From: an uncultured Candidatus Saccharibacteria bacterium
GTDB lineage: Bacteria; Patescibacteriota; Minisyncoccia; Phycocordibacterales; EsbW-18
NCBI GenBank assembly: GCA_964447415.1
Contig: CAYUSN010000003.1
Span: forward strand, 5,418 to 69,417
Direction of reading: 5' to 3'
DNA length: 64,000 nt
Positions 6,024 through 21,657 of the stretch are shown piece after piece (position 1 is the first letter of the stretch; each line of letters starts with the position of its first letter). The notes beneath the pieces are model-generated. The model was not told the origin of the DNA. It made no database searches and was given only the letters and a program-made list of their open reading frames with translations. A program made the position numbers and the translations under genes.

Positions 6024-6051
6024 TTGACTTTTTGTTTATTTCTGCTATAAT
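6024..6051 (+). promoter_or_regulatory. Near-consensus sigma70 promoter (TTGACT, 16-nt spacer, TATAAT)
   Basis: TTGACT at 6024-6029 and TATAAT at 6046-6051. A perfect 7-bp hairpin (GACCGCA-catttt-TGCGGTC, 6089-6108) follows in the 5'UTR, then SD AAGGAG. Confidence 0.6.
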
Positions 6052-6135
6052 AGCAAAGGATAGTCAAGGAACGCTCTTTGACTCGGGCGACCGCACATTT
6101 TTGCGGTCATCATAGACTAGATAAGGAGAAACCGA

Positions 6136-6459
6136 ATGAAGATTCGCATGCTGGTGGTGTTCGTCCTCGTCCTCGCGTCCTTCGGGACGCCGATGCAGGC
6201 GACGGATGTCGCCACCTCCATCGAGATCCTCCCGCTGGGAGCCGGTCTGGACAGGGTCATGTTGACCCCGGACTACTTCACTCGGGTCGGCGACGTCAGC
6301 TTTTATGGCTTCGTCGAGTACTCGGGTGAAGCCGGCGGATGGTACACCAACCATTCGGCGACGTGGCTCCCGGGTGGTTCCTGGATCGGTCTTCGGGCCG
6401 AGGTTGAGGTTGCCGGCAGCGATCGCACGGTGCGGTTCGGCGCTCGCAAGGTGTTCTAG
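6136..6459 (+). CDS. Small secreted protein (signal peptide) of unknown function in GC-rich islet A
   Basis: 107 aa with N-terminal MKIRMLVVFVLVLASFGTPMQA. SD AAGGAG lies 8 nt upstream. Roughly 62% GC with G/C in most third positions, unlike flanking genes. Ends ...RKVF (C-terminal Phe). Confidence 0.55.
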   Translation: MKIRMLVVFVLVLASFGTPMQATDVATSIEILPLGAGLDRVMLTPDYFTRVGDVSFYGFVEYSGEAGGWYTNHSATWLPGGSWIGLRAEVEVAGSDRTVRFGARKVF

Positions 6460-6503
6460 TTCTCCCAACCACAACCTTCGAAAGGAGGTTCGAGGAAAAA
6501 ACA

Positions 6504-6548
6504 AGCCGCCGAAAGAGTCGTCACTCTTCTCGGCGGCTCTTTCGTTTC
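6504..6548 (+). terminator. Rho-independent terminator
   Basis: 14-bp interrupted stem AGCCGCCGAAAGAG...CTCTTCTCGGCGGCT followed by CTTTCGTTTCT. Confidence 0.6.
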
Positions 6549-6664
6549 TAAGTAAATACGCCCGAGACGTGTTGTTAGAAAACACTTGCACGCGCACACA
6601 AGCATCCGTACACTGCTATACGGACGGACGCGCAATTCCGCGCACCTGACGAAGGGAGCACCTC

Positions 6665-15497: not shown

Positions 15498-16786
15498 TGC
15501 TCAATCGCCTCATCACACAAACCATTTTGATTACCATACTCTTGGCACTTTCAGCCGGAGCCTCTGCGGCGTCACTGGATGACCTGTACGATAAAATCAA
15601 CGAGAAGCAGGACCAAATTGAGCAGGTTGAGCGGGATATTAAAAAGTATGAAGCAGAGCTCCAGAAAGTCGGCGCCGAGCGCGGTACGCTTGAGGCCGCG
15701 ATTGCGGAGCTGAATCTCACGCGTCAAAAGCTGCTGTCTGATATCTCGCTCACGCAGAAAAAAATCGAACAGACGGAATACTCCATTGAAAAACTGTCGT
15801 TGACCATCGGCGAGCAGGAGGCGCGCATACAGCGGAATAACAACGTGCTGCGAGAAGCGCTCCGGACCGTGCATGCCGCCGACAACGAAACATTCGTTGA
15901 GGTGATGCTCGGACGCGACTCATTTACCGACGTATGGACCGAGATTGACCAGCTCGGACAGATACAGGAAACGGTACAAGACGAGCTCATCGCGCTCCGT
16001 GAACTGAAGGCGGAACTTTCCCAGCAACGCGAAGAAGAACAAAAAGAATATGATGCACTCTCGTCATACAAATCGAAGTTGAGCGGTCAAAAACAGGTCA
16101 TCGAAGTCAACAAACAACAAAAAGACCAGCTCCTCTCTACCACCAAAAGCAAAGAAGCCGAGTACCAGCGTCTTCTTGAAGAAAAACGTGCGGCTGCAAA
16201 AAAGTTTGAAAGCGAACTGCAGGATTATGAGGCGCAGCTCCAGTACGCACAGGATCCGAGCAAGCTTCCGCAAAAGGGAAGCGGGGTGCTCTCGTGGCCT
16301 ATTGAGAATCCGTACCTGACCCAGGGCTATGGCTTGACAAGTTTCGCAAGAAGTGGTGCTTATGGATATGACAAATCGGGCCAACCGAACCCGCACCGCG
16401 GTGTGGATTTCCGCGCATCCGTCGGCACGCCGGTTTTGGCGGCCGCTCCGGGAACCGTGCGCGACGCGGTGAACATGGATGCGGCAAAAGGATGCTATTC
16501 GTACGGCAAGTGGATTCTGATTGACCACGACAACGGGTTATCCACACTGTACGCGCATCTCTCGGTCATGTCGGTTGCCGCCGGCGACTATGTGAAGGCA
16601 GGTAAAATTATCGGCTATGCAGGCGCATCAGGCTATGCGACGGGTCCGCACCTGCACTTTACGGTCTTTGACCGCGACGCCGTGAAAGTATCGCCGTTTT
16701 CTTGGAGCATCGGCTGTAAAAACACCAAAGTACCGTACGCGCCGTACGAAGCATACCTTGACCCGAACGCGTACCTGCCGAAATAA
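15494..16786 (+). CDS. Peptidase M23 family murein endopeptidase with N-terminal coiled coil (EnvC-like)
   Basis: Signal peptide, long Q/E/K-rich coiled coil, then C-terminal HRGVDF...GPHLHF M23 zinc site. ATGA overlap with the gltX stop. Confidence 0.85.
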   Translation: MMLNRLITQTILITILLALSAGASAASLDDLYDKINEKQDQIEQVERDIKKYEAELQKVGAERGTLEAAIAELNLTRQKLLSDISLTQKKIEQTEYSIEKLSLTIGEQEARIQRNNNVLREALRTVHAADNETFVEVMLGRDSFTDVWTEIDQLGQIQETVQDELIALRELKAELSQQREEEQKEYDALSSYKSKLSGQKQVIEVNKQQKDQLLSTTKSKEAEYQRLLEEKRAAAKKFESELQDYEAQLQYAQDPSKLPQKGSGVLSWPIENPYLTQGYGLTSFARSGAYGYDKSGQPNPHRGVDFRASVGTPVLAAAPGTVRDAVNMDAAKGCYSYGKWILIDHDNGLSTLYAHLSVMSVAAGDYVKAGKIIGYAGASGYATGPHLHFTVFDRDAVKVSPFSWSIGCKNTKVPYAPYEAYLDPNAYLPK

Positions 16787-16834
16787 AACTATCAACAGCG
16801 GGTGCGCGCGGCGCAAATAAACGTGCTATAACGT

Positions 16835-17146
16835 TTGTATATGAAGTTTCAGGTACCAAACCACCGCGGATTCATCCAATTGATCCTCATTATTGTCATC
16901 GCGGTTATCGTGCTGGGATACTTCAGCATCAACATTGCCGACGTCATGGCGTCTCCGGTCGTCAAAGAAAACCTGTCCTACGTGTGGAACCTCGTGAAAG
17001 ACGTCTGGGGGACGTATTTAAGCGGACCCGCGACGTGGGTGTGGGAACATATTGTGAGCGTTTTGTGGGATTTATTTTTACAGGGCGTCGATAACTTGAG
17101 AGACAACGGCGGGCAGATTCCTGCACAGGAGATAAACATTGAGTAG
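16835..17146 (+). CDS. Small hypothetical membrane protein
   Basis: One TM helix LILIIVIAVIVLGYF; followed by hairpin GGGG-ttattaaaa-CCCC plus T-run. Confidence 0.45.
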   Translation: MYMKFQVPNHRGFIQLILIIVIAVIVLGYFSINIADVMASPVVKENLSYVWNLVKDVWGTYLSGPATWVWEHIVSVLWDLFLQGVDNLRDNGGQIPAQEINIE

Positions 17147-17282
17147 AGGAAACGGATTACGACAAAAAAAGGGCTTGCAGACGGGGTTATTAAAACCCCC
17201 TTATTTTTATAGTATATAGGTCGGAAAAGATATATTGTGCGACGTTATATCTCTCGTGAAACAAGTACTCCCCTCATGGGGG

Positions 17283-17768
17283 TCATTGACAGTTTTTTGC
17301 TTTTGTGAGCCCTGCCTGTTGCGCCTGTAATTCGCTCTCAAACCAGATTTTATTTTCTTCTTTTATCTGGCTTGCCCCGGCACACCAGGGGTAGTGATAC
17401 TTAGTGCCGTTTTTGGAGGCAACGACCCTTCCCCCTGCCCCCGGCAGGGCATCACTGTTTTTTAGGCCTCCTGGAGACGTTATAGCGTTGTCTGCCGAGT
17501 GTTCTGCAGGATTTCCATCATCGGTGCCGACCTTTGAACCGCTGTCTTTTGGGGGTGCGACAGGGAGGATGTTTTTTATGGAAACGGGGCACTGCACTTC
17601 CCTTTCTGACTCTATTTTTGCGGCCCCGTAGGAAAGCACGGCTATGCAAAAAGCCGCAGATACCAGCACGGCGTCGCGGGCAAAACGAAGGCCTCGGGGC
17701 TTGTTTTTCAGCCACAATACCTGTATACTTCCTCTTGCTTTTTCAAATAAAAACGACATATGGCACAT
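17283..17768 (-). CDS. Hypothetical secreted/membrane-anchored protein with C-terminal Cys/His motif (YHYPWC...ELQAQQAG)
   Basis: N-terminal anchor [13 protein letters not shown]; conserved-looking C-terminal ~45 aa. The ATG-based start overlaps the rpmA start head-to-head, so the true start is probably an internal TTG/GTG. Confidence 0.45.
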
Positions 17769-18035
17769 AGGAAAGCCGGCGGAACAGCTAAAAACCTGCG
17801 CGATTCAAACCCGAAATTTTTGGGCGTGAAGATCGCAGACGGACAGACTGCAAAACCCGGCGCAATCATCGTCCGCCAGCGCGGCACCAAGGTAGAGGCG
17901 GGAAAAAACGTTCGCATGGGCAAGGACCACACCCTCTTTGCGGTTGCCGACGGCACCGTCAAGTTCCGCGTAAAGCGCACCACCAAATTCAACGGCGCAT
18001 CCGCCCGTCAAAAGATTGTAGACGTCCTCTCTTAA
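17760..18035 (+). CDS. rpmA: 50S ribosomal protein L27
   Basis: [24 protein letters not shown] matches the L27 N-terminus; upstream TTGTTT-17-TATACT promoter. Confidence 0.9.
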
Positions 18036-18044
18036 GAAAAAATA

Positions 18045-18076
18045 AAACAACCTCCCGTTCAGGAGGTTGTTTTCGT
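18045..18076. terminator. Bidirectional rho-independent terminator (rpmA / rplI)
   Basis: AAAACAACCTCC-cgttca-GGAGGTTGTTTT between convergent genes. Confidence 0.65.
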
Positions 18077-18093
18077 ATCTGTCCGTCTTTGTA

Positions 18094-18540
18094 TTACTTC
18101 TCCGCCTCAACGCGAATCGTAATCGTTCCGAGAATATCTCCAATGCCGACTTTCACCGACGTGTCCCCGACTTCTTTGATGGGTTTATCCAGATGAATGC
18201 ACTCGGGAGGAATCGCAACACCCAATTGATCGTACGCACAGCTTGAAATACGCTCAACATGCAACGCACCGAACAGGTGACCCTTGTCATTCACCTTCTC
18301 GGTGACCGTCACTGTTTTACCGCTGATTTTTTCGATACAGTGCGCAACTTCCGATTCATGCATTGTTTTCTGTTCGGAGAGTTTCGCTTTCTGCGCTGCA
18401 ACCATGGCACGCGCAGCGGGTGTCGCCGCCTGCGCAAGTCCTTTCGGAATGAGACTGTGCAACGCGTAGCCGTCGGCGACGGTGACAATGTCAAACCGCC
18501 TTCCTACCTTGGCAACGTCTTTCAATAAGATGATTTCCAT
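18094..18540 (-). CDS. rplI: 50S ribosomal protein L9
   Basis: MEIILLKDVAKVGRRFDIVTVADGYALHSLIPKGLA matches the L9 N-terminus. The 314-aa track ORF is a 5' extension. TGcTTATAT lies 6 nt before the ATG on the minus strand. Confidence 0.88.
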   Translation of the reverse strand: MEIILLKDVAKVGRRFDIVTVADGYALHSLIPKGLAQAATPAARAMVAAQKAKLSEQKTMHESEVAHCIEKISGKTVTVTEKVNDKGHLFGALHVERISSCAYDQLGVAIPPECIHLDKPIKEVGDTSVKVGIGDILGTITIRVEAEK

Positions 18541-18672
18541 AGAGGTATATAAGCATACTACACCTATTTCACGAGAAAAACATTGACAGTGTACTTCCAC
18601 AGGGGGCACAATAGCCCCAGAAGCATGGTCTGGCGCACAGACCGTACTACCCCGAAAGGAGGTGATTGGGCT

Positions 18673-18966
18673 GTGGATAAACGATTCGTGGAGGCGAAAC
18701 TCGTGGATGCGAAGGTCAAAACCCTCGTAGAGCGGCCGAACGGCGACATCAGAATCGTCGACTCCCTGCCCCTGGGCGGTGAAGTCGCGATTCATTTCGC
18801 CAGCGGCGTGCTCCGCGAAGACGGCACCGTTGAGCGCAGGGTCGACGGAGAAATTCACTCGACCATTACGCTCTCCGGCCGCACACTGTCGGAGGTCACC
18901 GAGGAACTCCTCAAACCGTTTCAGAAGCAGGAGGGATACCGTGCAAGGAGAACGCAGAGCAGCTAG
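18673..18966 (+). CDS. Hypothetical 98-aa protein in GC-rich islet B (start GTG; alternative ATG at 18583)
   Basis: SD AAAGGAGGTGA sits 7 nt before GTG 18673. Strong GC3 bias. Upstream TTGACA (18583-18588) and 5'UTR hairpin GGGGC-acaata-GCCCC. Confidence 0.45.
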   Translation: MDKRFVEAKLVDAKVKTLVERPNGDIRIVDSLPLGGEVAIHFASGVLREDGTVERRVDGEIHSTITLSGRTLSEVTEELLKPFQKQEGYRARRTQSS

Positions 18967-18992
18967 CACCGTGCGCCACACCCTGTCGTTGT

Positions 18993-19034
18993 GAGCCGAC
19001 CCCGCACCCCGCGGAACCACCGGCTCATTTTTCG
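18993..19034 (+). terminator. Putative terminator of the islet B gene (stem GAGCCG...CGGCTC plus ATTTTTCG), overlapping the ctpA stop
   Basis: 6-bp outer stem with a GC-rich interior, then a T-run. Confidence 0.35.
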
Positions 19035-20236
19035 TCAAGAAGCAGTTTCACCGCCGCATCCATCTGCGGATCAATATCATTTTCAAAATCCTCGGGCGTA
19101 CGCACCACTTCAATGTCTGGTGTAAGTCCGCCGTCTGAAATAGAAACACCTTCAGGTGTAAACCACTTTCCGATGGTGATTTTGACCGATGTGTCGGCGG
19201 TTACCGGAATCAGCTCCTGCACGGAACCTTTGCCGAACGTTGTTTCCCCCACTATTGTCGCCCGTCCGTGTTCCTGCAATGCACCCGCAAGAATCTCGGA
19301 TGCTGACGCGGAGCCGCGGTCGACAAGCACCGCCATGTCAATCCCGTCCGGAAGCAGCGGGTAACCGAAACTGCGGTACTCCTGTGTCTCTCTTCCCTGC
19401 TCAAACCGTTCCGACACGACCACCTGTCCTTCGGGTAAAAAGTAGCTGGCGATTTCAACCGCCGAACCCATGATGCCGCCCGGATTACCGCGCAAATCCA
19501 GAATCAGTTTTGTACTGCCCGACGCGAGAAATTCCTTCAGTGCGCGGTACACCTTCTGAACCGACTGCCCGTCAAAGTTGTACAGCGCAATCACATAAAC
19601 ACCGTCGTCACGGAGTTCGCCGGAAAGCGTCGGGATGGAAATCTCTTCGCGCGTAATACTCATTTCCAAAAATTCATCCTCCCCTTCACGCGAAATGGTG
19701 AGCGCTACCTGCGTTCCCACGTCTCCGCGAATGCGCGACACTGCTTCGTCAACCGAGAGATCGAGTGTCGGCTCATCATCAATTTTTACGATAATGTCGC
19801 CTGAGCGGATGCCCGCGCGCTCCGCGGGTGTTTCCTTCAGCGGTGCAATTACCACGATGCCGGCGTCTTCCTTTCCGATTTCCATGCCGACACCGCCGAA
19901 ACTGCCCGCGATGATGTCGTTGAAATATTGTGTTTCCTCAGGAGGAAGAAAAACGGAGTACGGGTCACCGAGCGAATTCATGAGACCGCTGATCGCGCCC
20001 CACACCTTTTCCTGTGATTCCACGGAGTCGGCGTCGTAGTACCGCTCATTGATGGTGTTCCAGACGCGCCAGAAATCCGAAAAGTCGGCGGGTACGGATT
20101 CCGGCGTCTCCACGTTGACCGCATCCGTCACCAACTCAACCGGCGCAACCGAGTCGCGGCCGATAAAAAAACCGGCGGCAAAAAGTACCGCTCCCAAGAC
20201 CACTACCCCGAGTTTTCTCGCACGCTCAGTATTCAT
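19025..20236 (-). CDS. C-terminal processing peptidase (S41 family, PDZ domain)
   Basis: N-terminal TM; PDZ GIRSGDIIVKIDDEP; S41 catalytic region LILDLRGNPGG...VLVDRGSASASEI. Start taken at MNTERARK. Confidence 0.85.
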   Translation of the reverse strand: MNTERARKLGVVVLGAVLFAAGFFIGRDSVAPVELVTDAVNVETPESVPADFSDFWRVWNTINERYYDADSVESQEKVWGAISGLMNSLGDPYSVFLPPEETQYFNDIIAGSFGGVGMEIGKEDAGIVVIAPLKETPAERAGIRSGDIIVKIDDEPTLDLSVDEAVSRIRGDVGTQVALTISREGEDEFLEMSITREEISIPTLSGELRDDGVYVIALYNFDGQSVQKVYRALKEFLASGSTKLILDLRGNPGGIMGSAVEIASYFLPEGQVVVSERFEQGRETQEYRSFGYPLLPDGIDMAVLVDRGSASASEILAGALQEHGRATIVGETTFGKGSVQELIPVTADTSVKITIGKWFTPEGVSISDGGLTPDIEVVRTPEDFENDIDPQMDAAVKLLLDEK

Positions 20237-20283
20237 AGCCAGACCAGTATCGCATAGAGTAGAATAGAGTATCAAGGAACAAC

Positions 20284-21657
20284 ATGCTGTCGCTGTACAA
20301 CACATTGTCAAAAACGAAGGAGCCCTTCTCCCCCGCCTCGGGCAACACGGCGCGCATGTACAACTGCGGACCGACCGTCTACGACCGCGTCCACATCGGC
20401 AACCTCCGCGCGCTCCTGTTCGCCGACACGCTCCGACGCGTGTTGCAGTACGCAGGATTTGACGTACAGCAGGTCATGAACATTACCGACGTCGGTCACC
20501 TCTCCTCCGACCAGGACGAGGGCGAAGACAAAATGATGAAGGGTTTGAAGCGCGACCACCTCCCCGTTTCCCTTGCGGGACTCAAATCACTCGCCGACCG
20601 CTACACGGAATTATTCGCGCAGGATATGGAGGCGCTCAACGTCCTGCCGCCTGCAGTCATGCCGCGCGCATCCGAACACATCAAAGACCAAATTGACCTC
20701 ATCCGTCGACTTGAAAAAAAAGGACTCACGTACACCACATCAGACGGCGTCTATTTCTCCACCGGCGACTATCCGGCATACGGAAAACTCGGCGGATTAT
20801 CGGAGAGTTCGGATGAGCACACACGCGTGGAAGAAAACGCGGAGAAAAAAAATCCGCGCGACTTCGCGCTGTGGAAATTCAATGCGGAGCTCGGTTGGGA
20901 GTCGCCGTGGGGCAAAGGATTCCCCGGCTGGCACATTGAGTGCTCCGCGATGTCCATGAAGTACCTCGGCGAGACGCTTGATATTCATACCGGCGGCATC
21001 GAACACATTTCCGTACACCACAACAACGAAATCGCACAGGCGGAAGGCGCGACCGGAAAAACGTTCTCGCGCTTCTGGCTTCACAACGATCACGTTCGCG
21101 TGAACGGCCGCAAGATGGCAAAGTCAGAGGGCACCGGACTCACGCTTTCTGATATTGAAAAAGAAGGTATCACACCGCTCGCCTACCGCTACTGGGTGCT
21201 CACCGCGCACTACCGCTCCGCGGTGAACTTCACGCTAGACGCCGCGCGCGGTGCGCAAACCGCGTATGAAAAACTGAAAGCGCGTCTCGCCGACTTCCCT
21301 GACGCCGGCTCCGTTGACGCGGCATACGACGCGAAGTTTCGCGAGGCCGTTGAAGACGACCTCAATACTCCGCAGGCGGTGTCACTCGTCTGGGATTTGC
21401 TGCGCGATGAGGATGTAAAAGACGAGGATAAAAAAATGACTATTCTCGCGTGGGATGCGGTGCTCGGATTGAAGTTAAACGAAACGGAAGAACTGGTCGT
21501 TCCCGAAGACGTGAAAGAACTCTTGCACCGCCGTGAACTCGCCCGCGAAGCAAAGCACTGGGATATGGCCGACACGCTCCGAAAAGAAATCGAGGAAAAA
21601 GGATTCGTGGTGAAAGACACACCGGAAGGACAAAAGATTTCGAAGTCAAACTCCTAA
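20284..21657 (+). CDS. cysS: Cysteinyl-tRNA synthetase
   Basis: MYNCGPTVYDRVHIGN (HIGH) and KMAKSEG (KMSKS). Confidence 0.9.
   Translation: MLSLYNTLSKTKEPFSPASGNTARMYNCGPTVYDRVHIGNLRALLFADTLRRVLQYAGFDVQQVMNITDVGHLSSDQDEGEDKMMKGLKRDHLPVSLAGLKSLADRYTELFAQDMEALNVLPPAVMPRASEHIKDQIDLIRRLEKKGLTYTTSDGVYFSTGDYPAYGKLGGLSESSDEHTRVEENAEKKNPRDFALWKFNAELGWESPWGKGFPGWHIECSAMSMKYLGETLDIHTGGIEHISVHHNNEIAQAEGATGKTFSRFWLHNDHVRVNGRKMAKSEGTGLTLSDIEKEGITPLAYRYWVLTAHYRSAVNFTLDAARGAQTAYEKLKARLADFPDAGSVDAAYDAKFREAVEDDLNTPQAVSLVWDLLRDEDVKDEDKKMTILAWDAVLGLKLNETEELVVPEDVKELLHRRELAREAKHWDMADTLRKEIEEKGFVVKDTPEGQKISKSNS

Follow-up and report, generated by a model that had tools for sequence, protein, structure and literature searches.

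A selected small-protein gene with its own expression signals between ctpA and rplI in a Campbellbacteria-like CPR subclade

The interval between ctpA and rplI in the window (the whole 64,000-nucleotide stretch of DNA analysed here) carries a short open reading frame, ORF98. It is best explained as a monocistronic, self-contained gene encoding a small soluble protein, whose family (90–97 amino acids) is restricted to a single Campbellbacteria-like CPR subclade; we put the probability of this reading at roughly 0.8. The features of the unit, including all of those listed by an earlier note on this DNA, which are present where it placed them, are as follows.

18541–18575, minus strand: upstream region of rplI, with an invariant TAGTAT box, a TATATA box 5 nt before the ATG, and no Shine-Dalgarno (SD) sequence
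18583–18588, plus strand: −35 hexamer of the small gene, TTGACA (promoter scan, 10 of 12 matches)
18603–18618, no strand assigned: palindrome GGGGC-ACAATA-GCCCC, overlapping the −10 box
18607–18612, plus strand: −10 hexamer of the small gene, CACAAT (promoter scan; 18-nt spacer from the −35 hexamer)
18620–18672, plus strand: 5' UTR of about 53 nt, counted from a putative transcription start
18627–18643, plus strand: palindrome or hairpin GGTCTG-GCGCA-CAGACC in the 5' UTR, with a conserved core, TGGCGCAC, at 18631–18638
18654–18666, plus strand: SD block GAAAGGAGGTGAT, 11–13 nt complementary to the canonical 16S 3' tail
18673–18966, plus strand: protein-coding gene (ORF98), GTG start, 97 codons plus TAG
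18686–18715, plus strand: in-frame tandem duplication of 15 nt (TCGTGGAGGCGAAAC / TCGTGGATGCGAAGG), direct repeat D1
18971–18985, plus strand: 3' UTR segment GTGCGCCACACCCTG, inverted repeat I3, complementary at 13 of 15 nt to the 5' UTR at 18624–18638
18992–19032, plus strand: intrinsic terminator, a hairpin (18992–19027) followed by a T5 run (19028–19032)

Coding status and descent of the small gene

Syntenic orthologs of 90–97 amino acids lie between ctpA and rplI in eight lineages: L004, L006, L009, L010, L013, L019, L020 and L062 (in L062 only the 5' part of the ORF is covered, the contig being too short for the whole slot; that of L061 is likewise too short). The frame is open in these orthologs, and the start codon, GTG in seven lineages and ATG in L019, does not change position. 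Substitutions in ORF98 fall on the three codon positions in the ratio 6/4/28, to be compared with 11/4/57 in rplI and 5/2/22 in ctpA, and the two indels that separate relatives (15 and 3 nt) are both in frame. Within clades, dN/dS is 0.10–0.29 for ORF98 versus 0.03–0.10 for rplI. A frame kept open in orthologs, substitutions concentrated at third positions, a dN/dS far below 1 and indels of whole codons together form the pattern of a protein-coding gene. Judged by these comparisons, ORF98 is a real, selected coding gene, evolving several times faster than L9 but still under purifying selection.

The earlier note's proposal of a coding unit equipped with a promoter, SD and terminator of its own is thus borne out, as is the conservation of its ORF. 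The GTG at 18673 is present as described, but the length needs correction: 294 nt including the stop encode 97 amino acids, not 98. An overlapping structured RNA, which the same note had named as the finding that would undo a coding interpretation, did not materialize: there is no Rfam match and no consensus fold of the leader. A longer, 127-amino-acid ORF with a TTG start was also considered and is ruled out by a 2-nt indel upstream in relatives. Opposite the 15-nt duplication, L004 and L006 show a 15-nt gap; the five extra residues of this strain's protein result from the tandem duplication at 18686–18715.

In the two outgroups, L014 and L017, ctpA and rplI are separated by 26 and 13 nt, respectively, and the unit is absent. 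The adjacency of the two genes in these deeper relatives suggests that the unit of ~460 nt was probably gained once, between formerly neighbouring ctpA and rplI, and inherited vertically from then on. The identity matrices of ORF98 and rplI give the same grouping, and vertical descent is indicated by the congruence of the two trees. Acquisition of the unit, as the earlier note had it, is supported as a lineage-specific gain by rplI–ctpA synteny in relatives, a check that the note had proposed (same slot in eight lineages, absence from two outgroups). Loss of the unit in both L014 and L017 is a formally possible alternative.

Promoter, leader and terminator

The combination TTGACA-18-CACAAT is the best promoter-like site that the promoter scan found within 16500–21000. 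Its −35 hexamer is kept as TTGAC(A/C/G) in all nine lineages, its −10 box reads CACAAT, TACAAT, AAGAAT or TAGAAT, and the spacer varies in both sequence and length (15–16 nt in relatives). Near-TTGACA and near-TATAAT hexamers, a spacer within the allowed 16–18 nt and conservation of both hexamers at the orthologous loci characterize a sigma-70-type promoter. It would fire divergently from the rplI promoter, with transcription of the small gene starting at about 18619–18620.

The palindrome GGGGC-ACAATA-GCCCC, which had been described as a UTR hairpin, does exist. However, its loop is the −10 hexamer, and its arms are conserved in the closest relatives only (kept in clade A and partly in L010; absent from L013, L009, L019, L020 and L062). 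The probable transcription start, at or after the 3' arm, further counts against a hairpin in the UTR. The palindrome is promoter DNA and not a conserved RNA hairpin.

On the opposite strand, the rplI ATG lies at 18540–18538, and the block upstream of it, CCATAG.GTATATAAGCATACTACAC, is conserved in relatives; the L014 and L017 outgroups carry TACTAT 7 nt before the rplI ATG. Read from these boxes, the rplI promoter is of a leaderless or very-short-leader type, divergent from the small gene. The literature that we retrieved on SD and leaderless usage in Patescibacteria consisted of general papers on leaderless translation only.

The 5' UTR of the small gene is 96% identical between the window and L004, and identity between clades is 0.48. 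No consensus leader structure emerges: RNAalifold predicts 0 pairs on nine leaders. The SD sequence, AAAGGAGGTGA at 18655–18665, lies within the full conserved block and is placed 7 nt before the GTG at 18673. The block has no other exact copy within the window and is invariant in eight of nine lineages. Its duplex energy, −21 kcal/mol against a median of −6.45 for ~70 ORFs, makes it by far the strongest SD in the 64-kb window. An SD of this strength should recruit 30S subunits very efficiently, and it may also protect the 5' end of the transcript, by analogy with strong-SD leaders in Bacillus. The small gene is probably highly expressed.

At the other end of the unit, a G+C-rich stem-loop followed by a U-tract on the transcribed strand forms an intrinsic terminator. 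The fold consists of a 7-bp outer stem (TGAGCCG/CGGCTCA), an asymmetric internal loop (AC / AACCAC) and an inner stem of 4–5 bp; it was missed by a simple scanner because of the internal loop. The ctpA stop codon (TCA on the plus strand at 19025–19027, the gene being on the minus strand) falls inside the 3' arm, in agreement with the overlap that the earlier note reported. Across eight sequences, 95.8% of cells are paired, with one compensatory pair and two G.U pairs that are compatible with the plus-strand RNA only. A model of the terminator (R1) finds one copy per locus. The stable hairpin and T5 run would end the transcript at the convergent ctpA stop codon, and would presumably shield ctpA from antisense transcription and cap the 3' end of the mRNA.

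The two ends of the transcript are better conserved than the gene between them. The terminator is 0.85 identical across clades, compared with 0.48 at rplI third positions; the SD-start block and the terminator are 0.82–0.85 identical, compared with 0.42 for ORF98 and 30–40% for its protein. The invariant parts of the terminator are the outer stem and the internal loop, TGAGCCG-AC-(variable stem)-RACCAC-CGGCTCA-U5; in the neighbouring rpmA–rplI terminator, the stem sequence differs in every lineage. There is also the motif shared, in complementary form, by the 5' and 3' UTRs (duplex energy −23.5 kcal/mol), the core of which is kept in seven of eight lineages, with one compensatory pair (L010) and loss in L009. 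The 3' segment may serve in 5'–3' RNA pairing or as an inverted DNA motif, its status being uncertain. The candidate pairing segments are TGGCGCAC and GTGCGCCA.

Predicted product and base composition

The earlier note had recognised no family for the product, and searches agree: profile searches of Pfam, NCBIfam, PHROGs, PADLOC and PDB sequences gave nothing significant, Rfam likewise held no match, and an exhaustive HMMER search recovered the ORF98 family itself, with no homolog outside the clade. Two AF2 runs, one per subfamily and built on six sequences only, returned the same beta5 + alpha topology (pLDDT 79.7 and 80.8; pTM 0.67 and 0.68), so that the predicted structure of the protein is a meander of five beta-strands with a C-terminal helix as its cap. 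Foldseek found no significant match to these models. The product lacks a signal peptide, a metal site and a conserved basic patch; conservation in the family is concentrated at turn glycines, core hydrophobics and three acidic positions. The most likely role, proposed with low confidence, is cytoplasmic and either structural or in protein–protein interaction.

Several candidate relatives were rejected. A Phd/YefM-type antitoxin was suggested by phrog_375 (E = 0.014, in two of seven members only), but the gene is monocistronic and its predicted all-beta-plus-helix fold is unlike that of Phd. Bacterial Ig-like or HYR-type repeat proteins (the giant tandem-repeat HMMER matches P0003–P0008) reached E-values of 1e-13 to 1e-24 because 9–27 near-identical repeats were summed; each repeat scores at most 11 bits. 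The only match from a scan of genome contigs with the protein, in L005 (Bacteroidales), runs antisense within a 563-amino-acid gene and is spurious. PH-like and FERM-F3 (PTB-like) domains resemble the model in having a beta-meander followed by one long C-terminal helix, and chains of talin F3 and FERM F3 turn up repeatedly near the top of the Foldseek results, but all of these matches are insignificant (E ≥ 0.2, TM ~0.2). These domains have seven strands versus five in the ORF98 model, and we claim no membership.

In composition, the interval 18541–19034 has a GC content of 0.579, compared with 0.517 ± 0.038 for windows of the same size (z = 1.64, top 3.4%). The GC3 of ORF98 is 0.735 against a median of 0.568 ± 0.078 (~69 crude ORFs), among which it would rank second highest. 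Its GC by codon position (.64/.41/.735) follows the genome's normal coding pattern, cysS being.60/.39/.69. The block is thus GC-rich, as the earlier note described, but the excess is modest and the GC3 is not extreme. The further description of the block as compositionally foreign does not hold: the GC3 excess is kept in seven of eight lineages whose synonymous sites are saturated, and persistence over such divergence means that it does not reflect a recent foreign origin. It points instead to codon bias or expression bias.

Alternative readings and known parallels

The least tenable alternative takes ORF98 as spurious and attributes the rise in GC either to a structured RNA that escaped annotation or to an opposite-strand stretch that extends L9 at its N terminus. 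A minus-strand frame is indeed open from 19038 into rplI, giving a fused ORF of 314 amino acids, and RNAfold of 18595–18690 yields a three-way junction (z = −3.8) that would sequester the GTG. In relatives, however, the antisense frame is closed by 2–9 stops, and the junction has stems that are not conserved and would need a transcript beginning before the −10 box (the outer stem and the first hairpin either precede that box or span it). With no match in Rfam, and with third-position-biased substitution and in-frame indels in ORF98, we consider this reading already refuted by the comparative data and give it practically no credence. The idea that the interval is one member of a horizontally acquired family of GC-rich cassettes, related by common origin or mobilisation, fares better but is very unlikely. 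It was prompted by real observations: the unit is absent from two outgroups, its GC and GC3 exceed those of its neighbours, ORF98 has no homolog elsewhere, and two further units in the window, at 6024–6560 and 24583–23520 (probably islets A and C of the earlier note), have a similar layout, with near-consensus promoters, ~80-nt leaders, good SDs, a GC of 0.62–0.64 and no Pfam match. Yet the products differ in kind, one unit encoding a signal-peptide (secreted-type) protein of 107 amino acids, another comprising two genes, and ORF98 specifying a cytoplasmic protein of 97. When the three were compared, ORF98 shared no protein or DNA similarity with the others; in the window as a whole, the best non-self tblastn match had an E-value of 0.82 and blastn-short found no match longer than 14 nt. 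The layout that the units have in common is that of any well-signalled small operon, and the 'hairpin' of the present unit is, as described above, its −10 region. Nor are there marks of mobility: no integrase, transposase, attC-like site or target duplication at the borders, no recombinase within ±6 kb, and only one inverted repeat (I3), which is internal to the promoter–terminator frame. Each locus has just one copy of the unit, invariably in the ctpA–rplI interval, and no copy was found in IMG/VR (scanned with the protein profile and the terminator pattern) or in JGI metagenomes. Agreement of the ORF98 and rplI trees speaks for vertical descent, and the GC3 excess is not an un-ameliorated foreign signature. 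The proposal of a family of acquired cassettes is accordingly not upheld. The terminator pattern alone had 38 matches on metagenome contigs, all without a T-run and an upstream SD, which we attribute to chance in GC-rich DNA.

The remaining alternatives concern what the plain-gene model does not explain, namely the invariant outer stem and internal loop of the terminator, the strength of the SD and the conserved complementarity of the two UTRs. One possibility is that the transcript acts chiefly as RNA, or has a dual function, with the ORF secondary; possible roles would be a platform for a conserved RNA-binding protein, a 30S-binding element, or a very stable RNA circularised through 5'–3' pairing. 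This is in keeping with the high identity of the SD-start block and terminator relative to the ORF and protein, the free evolution of the ordinary terminator next door, the G.U pairs that mark the plus-strand RNA as the folding strand, the 13/15-nt complementarity with its one compensatory change, and a clade A ORF dS about half that of rplI. Against it, ORF98 makes up 70% of its transcript and purifying selection clearly acts on its protein, the main part of either UTR diverges at a neutral rate (0.45–0.48), and the leader has neither an RNAalifold consensus nor an Rfam match in any lineage (the best scores were ar15 at 18 bits and eiav_FSE at 13.7 bits, each with a gathering score of 40, and seven orthologous loci gave nothing). 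Moreover, the complementary motif has a palindromic GCGC core and is lost in L009, chance alone would be expected to give an 8-nt inverted match in ~500 nt, and the outer stem, being invariant, yields no covariation evidence. We consider primacy of the RNA distinctly unlikely. A related and somewhat broader proposal, that the invariant 3' hairpin, the 13-nt SD and the 5'/3' motif make up a clade-specific functional RNA module within a dual-function or specially regulated RNA, is unlikely rather than negligible; such a module could be a dock for a conserved RNA-binding protein, or part of a paired, ribosome-capped and unusually stable mRNA. Autoregulation, in which the small protein would bind the GGTCTG-N5-CAGACC palindrome lying about +9 to +25 of its own promoter as well as the inverted core copy of the 3' UTR, is highly improbable. 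The 6+5+6 palindrome is perfect and lies just downstream of the probable start site, its arms covary in L013 (CGGTCTT/AAGACCG), and its core recurs, inverted, 332 nt downstream. But the arms are broken in L010, L020, L019 and L062, and the protein evolves fast and lacks conserved basic residues or a recognisable DNA-binding fold. A constant motif is, furthermore, the opposite of the co-variation of protein and operator that would be expected.

The small-gene reading has parallels in known systems. Bacillus subtilis gsiB and the cryIIIA STAB-SD element exemplify monocistronic mRNAs that are both stable and strongly translated and whose leaders have an extended SD. The unit resembles them in its short leader, near-perfect long SD, strong terminator hairpin and small hydrophilic product, and by this analogy a 30S subunit kept at the 5' end by the SD may render the mRNA more stable. 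It differs in that there is no sequence relationship, and in its CPR host, where other genes of the window have weak SDs. SgrS/SgrT, RNAIII/delta-haemolysin and SR1/SR1P are dual-function sRNAs that also encode a small protein; like them, the unit would produce an autonomous transcript (~410 nt) with its most conserved sequence in the non-coding ends. Unlike them, its ORF is much longer and clearly selected as protein, no region for pairing with targets was recognised, and conservation does not extend to the UTR bodies. The unit is also akin to the orphan small-protein genes of CPR/Patescibacteria annotated as 'hypothetical protein', which share the short ORF, the narrow clade and the lack of any Pfam, NCBIfam or PDB relative; the present case differs in that its gain can be placed at a defined site and in that its regulatory elements are better conserved than its protein. 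But for a terminator and ribosome-binding site that outlast the protein in sequence, it is an ordinary orphan gene.

The result is mainly one of annotation: a 'hypothetical' 97-amino-acid CPR ORF turns out to be a real, selected and probably highly expressed gene, and its single gain is dated to one defined site within one subclade. Such genes are candidate contributors to what is lineage-specific in the biology of these little-studied episymbionts. The analysis also sets right the notion that a canonical promoter in a GC-rich islet is the mark of a mobile cassette family. Of wider interest is a single point: sequence constraint is stronger on the terminator and SD than on the protein. Should a bound factor be the cause, this would be an uncommon view of how CPR bacteria control expression after transcription. 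One member of the family has already been deposited, as 'hypothetical protein AMXMBFR44_4210 [Candidatus Campbellbacteria bacterium]'.

Layout and composition of islet B

Islet B (18541–19034), the block bounded by the rplI start and the ctpA stop, is in our reading a true orphan gene that is restricted to one clade and carries textbook signals for expression. Every element that the earlier note had listed for it (promoter, palindrome, Shine-Dalgarno (SD) sequence, ORF and terminator) was found, the ORF at 97 codons rather than the 98 aa first given.

Features of islet B and its flanking genes
18094–18540, minus strand: rplI (L9; Pfam L9_N and L9_C)
18583–18588: -35 box, TTGACA
18603–18618: palindrome, GGGGC-acaata-GCCCC
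18654–18666: SD block GAAAGGAGGTGAT, 7 nt before GTG 18673
18673–18966, plus strand: small-gene ORF (ORF98), GTG 18673 to TAG 18964–18966, 97 codons
18992–19027, then TTTTT: terminator hairpin, with the ctpA stop codon within its 3' arm
19025–20236, minus strand: ctpA, S41/CtpA protease gene

The islet had also been described as compositionally foreign, with extreme GC3. The excess is genuine but modest: islet GC is 0.579, against 0.517 ± 0.038 in equal-sized windows (z = 1.6, top 3.4%), and the ORF reaches 0.735 in GC3, where the median is 0.568 ± 0.078. GC1/GC2/GC3 values of.64/.41/.735 follow this genome's usual coding pattern.

A promoter scan paired TTGACA with CACAAT (18607–18612) across an 18-nt spacer (10/12 matches), the top site in the 4.5-kb neighbourhood. 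Across nine lineages the -35 box is kept as TTGAC(A/C/G), and the -10 box as CACAAT, TACAAT, AAGAAT or TAGAAT. The palindrome had been taken for a UTR hairpin; however, its loop holds the -10 box and its arms are kept in the closest relatives only, so it is promoter DNA. Transcription would start at ~18619–18620, at its 3' edge. No fold is conserved in the resulting leader of ~53 nt (RNAalifold predicted zero pairs among nine leaders), and the identity of the leader body between clades, 0.48, equals that of rplI third positions (the neutral rate). In two related contigs, differing ~100-nt insertions lie exactly at the -35 box (~18583 in the window): L019:1216–1393, with inverted repeats CCCCGTTACA...TGTAACGGGG and TTGAC on both sides, and L020:3800–3935, with inverted repeats TCAACCCCGC...GCGGGGTTGA. 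Both regenerate the -35 box at their right end, and they look like miniature inverted-repeat elements.

Coding status and descent of the small gene

Protein searches, both word-indexed and exhaustive, returned one identical protein and one 91-aa protein at 85% identity. Contigs around rplI relatives were fetched for inspection of the ctpA–rplI slot. An ORF of 90–97 aa, divergent to rplI and convergent with ctpA, occupies this slot in related contigs L004, L006–L008, L009, L010–L012, L013 (where the gene finder missed it), L019 and L020–L022, while L062 carries a 5' fragment. Between the window and L004, substitutions at codon positions 1/2/3 number 6/4/28 in the small ORF, 11/4/57 in rplI and 5/2/22 in ctpA, and both small-ORF indels (15 nt and 3 nt) are in frame. 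Within clades, Nei-Gojobori dN/dS is 0.10–0.29, compared with 0.03–0.10 for rplI. The start codon holds a fixed position (GTG in seven lineages, ATG in L019), and a 15-nt in-frame tandem duplication at 18686–18715 adds five residues (VEAKL/VDAK) absent from the closest relatives. Judged by these comparisons, the islet B ORF is a genuine protein-coding gene, conserved and under selection.

Two other reading frames were rejected: a longer, TTG-start ORF is excluded by an upstream 2-nt indel, and a 314-aa antisense ORF fused to rplI and spanning the islet (18094–19038, minus strand) contains 2–9 stops in relatives, marking it as an open-frame artefact. No Rfam family matched the islet or seven orthologous loci.

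The named rplI relatives are Candidatus Campbellbacteria or Paceibacterota, and one small-ORF homolog has been deposited as a hypothetical protein from a Ca. Campbellbacteria MAG. By rplI identity there are three groups: clade A (the window, L004 and L006; 93–94% identical), clade B (L010, L019, L009 and L020) and, outside both, L013. Small-ORF identities are 85–90% in clade A, 62–71% in clade B, 30–40% between the clades and 47% between clade A and L013 (rplI identities for comparison, 76–85% and about 69%). Since both genes give the same grouping, the small gene is, by this measure, passed on vertically, evolving several-fold faster than L9. In outgroup contigs L014 and L017 (rplI 55–61% identical), only 26 and 13 nt separate the ctpA stop from the rplI ATG, on the same strand; the most parsimonious account is that a unit of ~460 nt was gained once, between genes that had been neighbours. 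An exhaustive search of 1.84 billion cluster representatives found no homolog outside the clade, and nothing matching was found in IMG/VR. Giant repeat proteins were rejected as homologs (each repeat scored ≤11 bits). Elsewhere in the outgroup lineage, a tyrosine recombinase gene (Phage_integrase, PF00589; L014:5270–6241, L015:1789–2760) lies between the ORF beside rpmA and an M23 peptidase gene; it is absent in the window's lineage.

Expression signals and product

The comparative analysis shows a conserved ORF under selection, with a conserved promoter and a very strong SD ahead of it and, behind it, a terminator hairpin with U-tract. Pairing of the SD with the canonical 16S tail extends over 11–13 nt (-21 kcal/mol), and no other SD in the window comes close in strength; the stretch running from the SD into the first codons (GAAAGGAGGTGAT..GTGGAYAA) retains 0.82 identity between clades. 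Identity between clades is likewise high for the terminator, at 0.85: the 7-bp outer stem and both internal-loop strands are invariant, and variation is confined to the inner stem, where a single C-G pair has become U-A by a compensatory change. Two G.U pairs fit plus-strand RNA only. As a control for ordinary terminator evolution we used the bidirectional terminator between the convergent genes rpmA and rplI (18044–18073), 900 nt away, whose stem sequence differs in every lineage while its structure is kept. Searched with a covariance model of the small-gene hairpin, 175 kb of related DNA contained exactly one copy at each locus and no others; 38 exact-pattern matches in JGI metagenomes were judged to be chance. 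Terminator and SD are under stronger sequence constraint than the encoded protein, which is unexplained.

One candidate explanation, that the ends of the mRNA form a functional RNA module, seems unlikely to us. Leader positions 18624–18638 are complementary to 3' UTR positions 18971–18985 at 13/15 nt. Seven of eight lineages retain the core of this match (TGGCGCAC/GTGCGCCA); L010 shows one compensatory pair, and L009 has lost the core. It is partly palindromic, though, and in one sequence taken alone, complementarity of this length is close to what chance would give. We regard the pairing as unexplained rather than established. In the arrangement that we favour, an ordinary and probably strongly expressed gene, transcription would begin at ~18619, and the SD would capture 30S efficiently and, being long, might protect the 5' end. 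Termination at ~19030 would prevent antisense read-through of the strong transcript into ctpA, and the terminator would cap the mRNA 3' end. GC3 is raised in seven of eight lineages despite saturated synonymous divergence, and small-ORF dS in clade A is about half that of rplI, suggesting a codon bias due to high expression and not a foreign origin; constraint at the RNA level could also account for the pattern.

AlphaFold2, run on a six-sequence alignment with each subfamily in turn as target, gave one topology: a five-strand beta-meander, then a long C-terminal helix (pLDDT 79.7 and 80.8, pTM 0.67 and 0.68; all five models agree in the second run). Invariant residues comprise turn Gly/Asn/Asp, core Leu/Val and acidic E7, E37 and D50. 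The protein sequence contains no signal peptide, hydrophobic segment, Cys/His motif or conserved basic patch. Our best guess, held with little confidence, is that the protein is abundant in the cytoplasm and acts as a structural or protein-protein interaction module.

SD complementarity is weak in most of the ~70 window ORFs (median -6.45 kcal/mol against the canonical anti-SD, best of alternative starts chosen), so this genome may often initiate translation without an SD or on leaderless mRNAs. Upstream of rplI (18541–18575, minus strand) there is no SD; instead, a TAGTAT box, which is invariant, and a TATATA box end 5 nt short of the ATG, suggesting that the mRNA has no leader or almost none. 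In the outgroups, which lack the insert, TACTAT stands 7 nt before the rplI ATG, directly after the ctpA stop.

Other GC-rich units in the window

Two further units probably correspond to islets A and C, the other GC-rich blocks of the earlier note, since they fit its description.

6024–6560, plus strand: probably islet A; TTGACT-16-TATAAT, SD TAAGGAGA, ATG 6136
24583–23520, minus strand: probably islet C; TTGACA-16-TATAAT, SD AAAGGAGGAG

Both have near-consensus promoters, ~80-nt leaders, good SDs, GC of 0.62–0.64 and products without a Pfam match. The first (GC 0.64) has a leader hairpin (GACCGCA/TGCGGTC, 6088–6108), a terminator at ~6503–6545 and a 107-aa product with a signal-peptide-like N-terminus (MKIRMLVVFVLVLASFGTPMQA). 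The second (GC 0.62) encodes a 157-aa ORF (24468–23995), then a 130-aa ORF (23961–23569) with its own SD, and has a GGGCCC...GGGCCC terminator. ORF98 has no protein or DNA similarity to either unit, and the layout common to all three is generic; the idea of a family of acquired cassettes is therefore unsupported.

Two ORFs without a Pfam match also flank rpmA: 17283–17768 (minus strand, 161 aa) and 16835–17146 (plus strand, 103 aa). Relatives carry ORFs at the corresponding positions (134–160 aa and 101–103 aa), and so both are likely to be real, lineage-specific genes.
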